A DNA stretch of 64,000 nucleotides from Octopus vulgaris (taxonomy: Eukaryota): NCBI GenBank assembly GCA_951406725.2, contig OX597840.1:11966001-12030000 (forward strand). The letters run 5' to 3'. The notes below the pieces were generated by a model. That model ran no database searches, was not told where the DNA came from, and was given only the letters and a program-made list of their open reading frames with translations. The translations under genes were made by a program, and so were the position numbers. Shown in pieces: positions 47,576 through 48,359 of the stretch (position 1 is the stretch's first letter; the number at the start of each line of letters is the position of its first letter).

Positions 47576-47852
47576 TTGCAGCGTGGAAGGTGTTTATAAG
47601 CCATTTAAGAAACACACAAAACCGTTAGATTCACTTCAACATTTAAATTTAATTTGTCAAAATATTTTCGTCGCTTTGAGACTGCGACCTGTTCACTGAC
47701 AAGATTTGAGATGCAGCACAAAGTTTTGTCAGGGAACAGGTCGCAGTCTCAAAGCGACGAAAATATTTTGACAAATTAAATTTAAATGTTGAAGTGAATC
47801 TAACGGTTTTGTGTGTTTCTTAAATGGCTTATAAACACCTTCCACGCTGCAA
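47576..47852. mobile_element. Penelope-like fold-back: 127-bp inverted arms, each with a G3-C8 hammerhead motif
   Basis: 47576-47702 versus 47726-47852 differ at a single position (47733). A third copy lies at 48052-48255. Confidence 0.8.
47654..47702 (-). ncRNA. Minimal hammerhead ribozyme motif, G3-C8 variant (intact core)
   Basis: TTGTCA-GTGAACA-G-GTCGC-agtctcaaa-GCGAC-GAAA-ATAT-TT-TGACAA. Confidence 0.62.
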
Positions 47853-48018
47853 TTGTTTACGTTCTGAGTTCAAATTCCGCCGAGGTCGACTTTCCCTTTC
47901 ATCCTCTCGGGGTCGATAAATAAAGTACCAGTTTCGCACTGGGTCGATGTAATCGACTTAATCCCTTTGTCTGCCCTTGTTTGTCCCCTCTATGTTTAGC
48001 CCCTTGAGGGCAGTAAAG

Positions 48019-48055
<37 letters not shown>

Positions 48056-48359
48056 TCATGAAGTTTTGTCAGTGAACAGGTCGCGGTCTCAAAGTGATGA
48101 GAATATTTTGACACAAATTAAATTTAAATGTTAAAGTGAATCTAACGGTTTTGTGTGTTTCTTAAATGGCTTACAAACACCTTCCATGCTGCAATTGTTT
48201 TCGTTCCAGCACACGATCTCAAATCAAGTCACTCGCTATGCAAGTACATCTCCAAAATTCATATTTGGTGACGCAATAATAAAATCATTAAAAATTAAAT
48301 ATTGTTGTTGGTAAATAGTTCCAATGTCTTTCACTTACTGCTTTTTCTTTTCTTTCTAG

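Follow-up and report, generated by a model that had tools for sequence, protein, structure and literature searches.

Known Penelope-like hammerheads and the octopus repeat

Minimal hammerhead ribozymes of type I (min-HHR) are known from Penelope-like retroelements (PLEs) of metazoans. According to the portion of Cervera and de la Pena 2014 (PMC4209133) used here, they have an extra base between position 9 and position 10.1, a G10.1-C11.1 pair and a tiny palindromic helix III, and they are found as thousands of mostly single copies, some of them close together on opposite strands. The 3-8 pair is given there as C3-G8 or U3-A8, and in schistosome families helix II has 7-8 bp and helix I 4-5 bp, with sizes varying by family. 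In the assays excerpted from that paper, monomers did not cleave and dimers showed low cleavage. A second relative, the Poseidon PLE of Anolis carolinensis (PAc; excerpts of PMC11167929), combines an ORF with a C3-G8 hammerhead in its pseudo-LTR (pLTR), inserts at AT-rich targets and has two fixed 3′ ends. Its hammerhead did not cut without its protein, and G3-C8, present there as a laboratory rescue only, restored cutting in part. PLE insertions can consist of an inverted, 5′-truncated copy beside the pLTR, with a tail at one end (PMC8557442, in part), and two internal starts of reverse transcription would fit a two-ended tail (PMC11167929, same excerpts).

Non-LTR retrozymes are likewise short, non-coding type I hammerhead repeats of probable PLE derivation (PMC7229834, in part). 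They are depleted from introns in Xenopus according to a 2026 preprint, whose accessible part contains no orientation or core-mutation test (bioRxiv 10.64898/2026.07.22.740005). Natural hammerheads with a compensated 3-8 change have been described, yet these are U3-A8, and terms for G3-C8 had no match in the accessible text (PMC3088659). G3-C8 is mentioned as a laboratory variant (PMC3884650). The main texts and excerpts searched gave no natural G3-C8 case, though published G3-C8 families may exist, and no test that resolves the decay of PLE hammerhead cores by strand.

The window analysed here, a stretch of 64,000 nucleotides of Octopus vulgaris contig OX597840.1, holds four copies (A to D) of a repeat with a unit of ~205 bp and thousands of genome copies. 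In the 2.8 Gb and 227 contigs searched, a 24-mer anchor downstream of the hammerhead had 3898 exact matches, or 4374 with four letters left free, while the reversed 24-mer had none. For a family sample, 270 copies from 160 ten-kb loci (of 186 planned) on contigs C1 and C2 were aligned, 71 of which lack a whole hammerhead.

The repeat carries a predicted minimal type I hammerhead whose 3-8 pair is G3-C8 across the family. Of 208 aligned copies, 196 have G3 and 202 have C8. U4, G5, A6, A9, A13, A14, A15.1 and U16.1 are each at least 95% conserved, and G12, at a CpG, is kept in 210/232 copies, in a sample that was partly chosen with anchors fixing C8 and A9. The extra G between A9 and 10.1 (215/222), G10.1 (218/225), C11.1 (191/231, with CpG decay) and a helix III consisting of a six-base palindrome are shared with the PLE min-HHR, as are the high number of mostly single copies and their occasional opposite-strand neighbours. 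Helix I measures 6-7 bp. The differences lie in helix II, which has 5 bp instead of 7-8, and in the 3-8 pair, which is G3-C8 throughout. The Rfam scan gave 0 matches at gathering thresholds. By its sequence features, the octopus hammerhead would be a new core variant of the known PLE min-HHR class. The sequence-only reading that preceded this analysis had rightly recognised a G3-C8 hammerhead family but overlooked that it is of the Penelope-type minimal class.

Architecture and origin of the repeat

The 5′ edge of the repeat is single and sharp. The 3′ edges are two, also sharp and ~60 nt apart, with 105 and 119 of the 270 copies ending at the one or the other, as in PAc, where two fixed ends fit two internal reverse-transcription starts. 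A head-to-head pair, that is, an inverted 5′-truncated neighbour copy, occurs in 92 of the 160 loci, and in 81 of these 92 the two arms differ in length, one being long and the other short, corresponding to an optional tail at one end. The tail is ~60 nt long, compared with the 30-40 bp described for PLEs. Many copies adjoin (TA)n, which recalls the AT-rich targets of PAc. Because head-to-head copies and tail follow the layout described for PLEs, the fold-back is likely an integration product. The repeat itself is likely the orphaned end piece, or pLTR, of a Penelope-like retroelement.

In contrast to PAc, the repeat was found without an attached ORF. An autonomous element carrying it was not found among the 30 inspected of 148 scored matches (from 6136 candidates), and the piece of the repeat seen at one of 30 GIY-YIG loci has a junction there that is unique in the genome. 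Locus L089 was rejected as parent repeat, with one match genome-wide. The long form ends in 93 bases (48166-48255 in the window) that are open from an ATG onwards and may be the start of a lost coding region. Whereas non-LTR retrozymes form head-to-tail arrays, the copies in the octopus loci examined are single or head to head, and head-to-tail tandem units with whole hammerheads were not seen among the 160 loci.

Fourteen loci (L235, L237, L247, L249, L250, L253, L259, L267, L270 and L273-L277) share one fold-back junction, in a composite hairpin with one arm lacking the 5′ core. The identity of the junction indicates that the whole hairpin is being multiplied as one piece, probably carried by another mobile element.

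Further PLEs are present in the genome. A young family with many intact 781-codon ORFs has a U3-A8 minimal hammerhead and a different palindrome; it was seen at L067 and L072 and 0.5-0.9 kb downstream in L068-L087. Another PLE ORF, with RT and GIY-YIG motifs recognised by eye, lies at L257:7578-9707 on the minus strand, and C3-G8 hammerheads of another PLE family occur at L180 and L201. Three types of 3-8 pair (G3-C8, U3-A8 and C3-G8) thus coexist in the octopus genome.

The four copies and their host gene

The features of the locus are collected in Table 1.

Table 1. Repeat copies and host exons in the window (positions in the 64,000-nt stretch).
Feature	Position	Strand	Remarks
Candidate exon upstream of copy A, long and of low complexity	16740..17409	+	splice phase compatible with 28354
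Copy A	26682..26796	-	core intact; host orientation uncertain
Head-to-head partner of copy A	26798..26888	+	long-ended, without hammerhead
Host exon downstream of copy A	28354..28525	+	homologous exons in other animals
Host exon with TIL domain, upstream of B-D	44778..45030	+	TSP1/TIL gene
Left arm / copy B	47576..47702	-	inverted, 5′-clipped, short-ended copy; intact G3-C8 hammerhead at ~47654-47702
Fold-back loop, 23 nt	47703..47725	.	includes the junction of the inversion and the initial 15 bases of copy C
Copy C, short-ended	47711..47856	+	sense to host gene
U4 to G	47733	+	sole mismatch between the arms; read from assembly
Abundant interspersed repeat, unrelated	47857..48023	+	many copies in window; presumably a SINE
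(TA)n microsatellite	48020..48052	.	at start of copy D
Copy D, long-ended	48051..48255	+	more diverged
Candidate host exon downstream of D, short and with cysteine	48360..48406	+	

The right arm of the fold-back spans 47726-47852, and both arms are 127 bp long. The earlier reading had described such arms with one mismatch, and this proved correct (47695 A opposite 47733 G); hammerhead numbering also bears out its assignment of 47733 to a U4 to G change in the core of the plus-strand copy. In copy C, stem I is formed by 47726-47731 and 47769-47774, followed by the core at 47732-47738 (G3 at 47732), the extra G at 47739, stem II at 47740-47744 and 47754-47758, G12-A15.1 at 47759-47762 and the palindromic helix III up to 47767; the predicted cut falls after 47768. 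Copy C departs from the family majority at three sites inside the repeat, and a fourth difference lies beyond the copy end. Copy B has one difference, in loop II. Copy D has 10 substitutions and a 2-nt insertion, including C11.1 to T and, as had been noticed before, a G at 48101 where the family has A14. In copy A (hammerhead at 26732-26782), stem II contains a G-U wobble, and a stretch within the repeat is deleted downstream of the hammerhead. The cores of both minus-strand copies are whole, as the earlier reading had it, though the antisense status that it gave to copy A is uncertain.

The host gene around copies B-D appears to be SCO-spondin-like by its domain content. Further TSP1 exons follow 48360..48406 on the plus strand. 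With plus-strand TIL and TSP1 exons on either side of B-D, copies C and D are sense to the host. A homologue search with the TIL exon found none among 2 candidates, and a TIL search found no additional exon upstream on this region of the contig. It is uncertain whether copy A belongs to the same gene, the only link being the splice phase between the exons at 16740-17409 and 28354-28525. Pfam gave no match to the former, and in a representative search with the latter homologues were exon-sized only. The T/A skew around copy A (-0.099) reads as a minus-strand transcript.

Further observations concern the surroundings of the gene. A minus-strand IP3-receptor-like exon at 6981-7119 matches the beginning of a partial Octopus sinensis model with 100% identity. 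It begins with an acceptor and needs an upstream exon at higher coordinates. The downstream exons of this gene lie just outside the window (C27:11.93-11.96 Mb), and upstream exons were found neither in the window nor on this contig, which indicates a gene that has been split or truncated or that contains a very long intron. Such an intron may enclose the TSP1/TIL gene. A paralogous gene at C20:10.04-10.40 Mb has its 5′ exons on the plus and its 3′ exons on the minus strand, 310 kb apart, and we read this as an inversion or a mis-assembly. The first 5000 nucleotides of the window are an array of ~485 copies of a very AT-rich 10-base unit.

Core changes and their probable causes

In our judgement, the four copies are probably pieces of an orphaned pLTR with a predicted G3-C8 hammerhead, in which two cores were damaged by neutral decay. 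A Penelope-type protein acting in trans would begin reverse transcription at either of two internal positions, seen as the two sharp 3′ ends, and would often do so at (TA)n. Integration would often add another copy in inverted, head-to-head position, giving the fold-back, and the inserted copies would then mutate, core included. Since insertion, the family has accumulated changes at ~3% per site and ~10% at CpG. During host transcription, pairing with arm B would keep copy C from ever folding as a ribozyme. Lone copies, which would need a partner for helix III, would cut little or not at all, so that their cost to the host would be low.

Folding predictions are in line with such behaviour. For copy C in its context, the pairing probability of stem II is 0.0, and the duplex with arm B reaches -222 kcal/mol; for copy D, stem II has a pairing probability of 0.04. 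Closure of helix III in a monomer costs +5.4 kcal/mol. The strand-swapped dimer is predicted at -24.0 kcal/mol, but the lowest-energy dimer is a different one, at -28.6. These models suggest that the monomeric octopus hammerhead cuts poorly. On the other hand, copies C and D lie 340 nt from one another as direct repeats, an arrangement in which a dimer could form. As copy C is predicted to be locked in the duplex with arm B, its structure makes selection on 47733 unlikely.

The core is not changed in excess genome-wide. The letters G3-U4-G5-A6 are altered in 113 of 1168 copies (9.7%), and for this four-letter string at a place outside the ribozyme the count is 476 of 4374 (10.9%), a ratio of 0.89 (interval 0.73-1.08) between two sets that differ in subfamily make-up. 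In the 160-locus sample, 52 of 199 whole copies (~26%) have a changed core, and the first 100 sample copies had 16 G3-A6 changes, above the genome average. Core-changed copies are more diverged elsewhere (0.091 vs 0.046). Subfamily variants fall in the core at 0 of 15 sites, which is not significant (p=0.25). With ~26% of copies changed, the pattern in the window has a probability of ~0.04; among thousands of loci, similar patterns would be common. We take the core changes to be probably neutral.

The mismatch at 47733 could also be a consensus error in a long perfect hairpin whose arms are in truth identical. The G at this position rests on the assembly sequence, and the arms of B and C are the most alike of the pairs compared: 1 of 127 positions differs, and the best of 41 other pairs have 1/71 and 2/123. 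The contigs of 4 public runs over 47400-48420 were fragmented and flooded by paralogues and gave no base call at 47733 or 48101. Every other pair, however, shows at least one difference. The same U4 to G change is present at another locus (L003), and T to G within GTG is found again in the control 4-mer outside the ribozyme, which makes the change at 47733 one of an ordinary kind. An error is therefore improbable, and neutral decay remains the preferred reading.

Strand orientation and possible selection on lone copies

The sequence-only reading had proposed that selection may remove self-cleaving copies from transcribed introns. A Pfam scan of 272 candidate exons gave the strand for 14 loci, one of which lies upstream of a first coding exon, and multi-exon runs added 2 more; 300 further ORFs fell outside the scan, the top ones being mostly mobile-element fragments. 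In these 16 loci, 6 sense copies are intact and 5 changed, against 7 and 4 antisense copies. As the sense strand of introns has more T than A in 15/15 exon-called loci (mean skew 0.06), this skew was used as a strand proxy. It is noisy, with left and right flanks agreeing in sign in 98/160 loci and a wrong sign in the window intron at 28.5-36 kb. The skew of kinase flanks was rejected as a proxy, being weak (19/30).

Paired counts exclude the fourteen composite-hairpin loci, and later counts omit one copy in L209 whose key was duplicated. In the 41 fold-backs with two whole hammerheads, the core is changed in the sense copy only 4 times, in the antisense copy only 11 times and in both 5 times. 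Among all non-composite copies sorted by skew, intact and changed cores number 70 and 30 in sense and 62 and 22 in antisense orientation (p=0.62). The long arm is sense in 32/62 cases, so insertion has no skew bias, and the share of changed cores is no higher in lone copies (16/63) than in paired ones (29/104; p=0.86). The four copies in the window, the fold-backs, the exon-called loci, the genome-wide core and control rates, and the intact unpaired copies (28 sense and 29 antisense) thus lend no support to the proposed selection.

In the exon-called loci, the hammerhead of all 6 intact sense copies is masked by a partner, and each of the 3 sense copies without such masking has a changed core; the sample was therefore split by masking. 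Among strict lone copies, the core is changed in 15/39 skew-sense but 1/24 skew-antisense copies (p=0.002, or p=0.015 without the 7 discovery loci), and among 80 unmasked copies in 19/47 and 4/33 (p=0.006). A comparison by orientation, which the earlier reading had put forward as a check, thus shows nothing overall and a difference in lone copies only, where it is post hoc and proxy-based.

One explanation for this difference is that intact lone copies on the transcribed strand cut pre-mRNA slowly, possibly helped by the protein of the element or by a partner, so that core-killing alleles were favoured and masked copies exempt. Intronic self-cleavage that lowers mRNA has a precedent (PMC10919898, in part). 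In unpaired copies, core substitutions number 30 at 517 skew-sense sites and 4 at 363 on the other strand, while non-core rates are equal (115/3321 vs 83/2253). The core contrast is absent from paired copies (interaction of strand bias with pairing, p=1.5e-4), and divergence does not account for the lone-copy bias (p=0.001). The bias has the same direction in all three sampling lists; per flank it gives p=0.03 and 0.22, and a second strand predictor agrees in direction. Against this, the split was chosen post hoc with the noisy proxy described above, and intact lone copies are not depleted on the sense side (24 vs 23). The outlier is rather the antisense lone copies, which are too intact (1/24 vs 29/104, p=0.014), the sense excess having p=0.23. 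The signal weakens to p=0.05-0.06 at skew > 0.03, and to p=0.04-0.2 when stem-breaking changes are counted as inactivation. In 27 small loci, with low power, both unpaired changed copies (2) lie off the sense side, and the genome-wide core counts show no excess. Moreover, 47733 is masked by arm B, so this kind of selection cannot explain it. We consider selection on unmasked copies possible, though clearly the less probable account. The lone-copy effect is suggestive, and the chance that it is real is small but worth pursuing.

A purine-rich core led us to consider that strand-asymmetric mutation, or A-to-I editing of the element RNA before insertion, produced the lone-copy bias. One copy, in L236 (~4947-5082), has at least six A-to-G changes, six of them away from subfamily sites, in a cluster close to the hammerhead, and resembles the trace of A-to-I hyper-editing before insertion. 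However, A and G outside the core mutate alike in both orientations, A-to-G (108/9636) is not above T-to-C (138/9817), and editing before insertion cannot depend on the host strand. This explanation is largely refuted and very unlikely, and ADAR editing was rejected as a general cause on the same counts. Neutral decay of an orphaned pLTR is thus retained as the best explanation for the four copies.

Implications

The family-wide G3-C8 pair of the octopus repeat is the natural counterpart of a mutant made as a rescue in the laboratory. Minimal hammerheads of animal Penelope elements may or may not cut in cells; published assays found little activity of the ribozyme alone. If the bias in lone copies vanishes, the loci described here reflect ordinary repeat decay. 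We think it doubtful that lone G3-C8 hammerheads cut host pre-mRNA in vivo frequently enough for selection to promote loss of the core on the transcribed strand, with the inverted twin as a safety catch. If true, a mutation bias that depends on strand, core and masking would be genomic evidence for cutting in cells, and thousands of dispersed copies would provide a population-genetic read-out of ribozyme activity in vivo.
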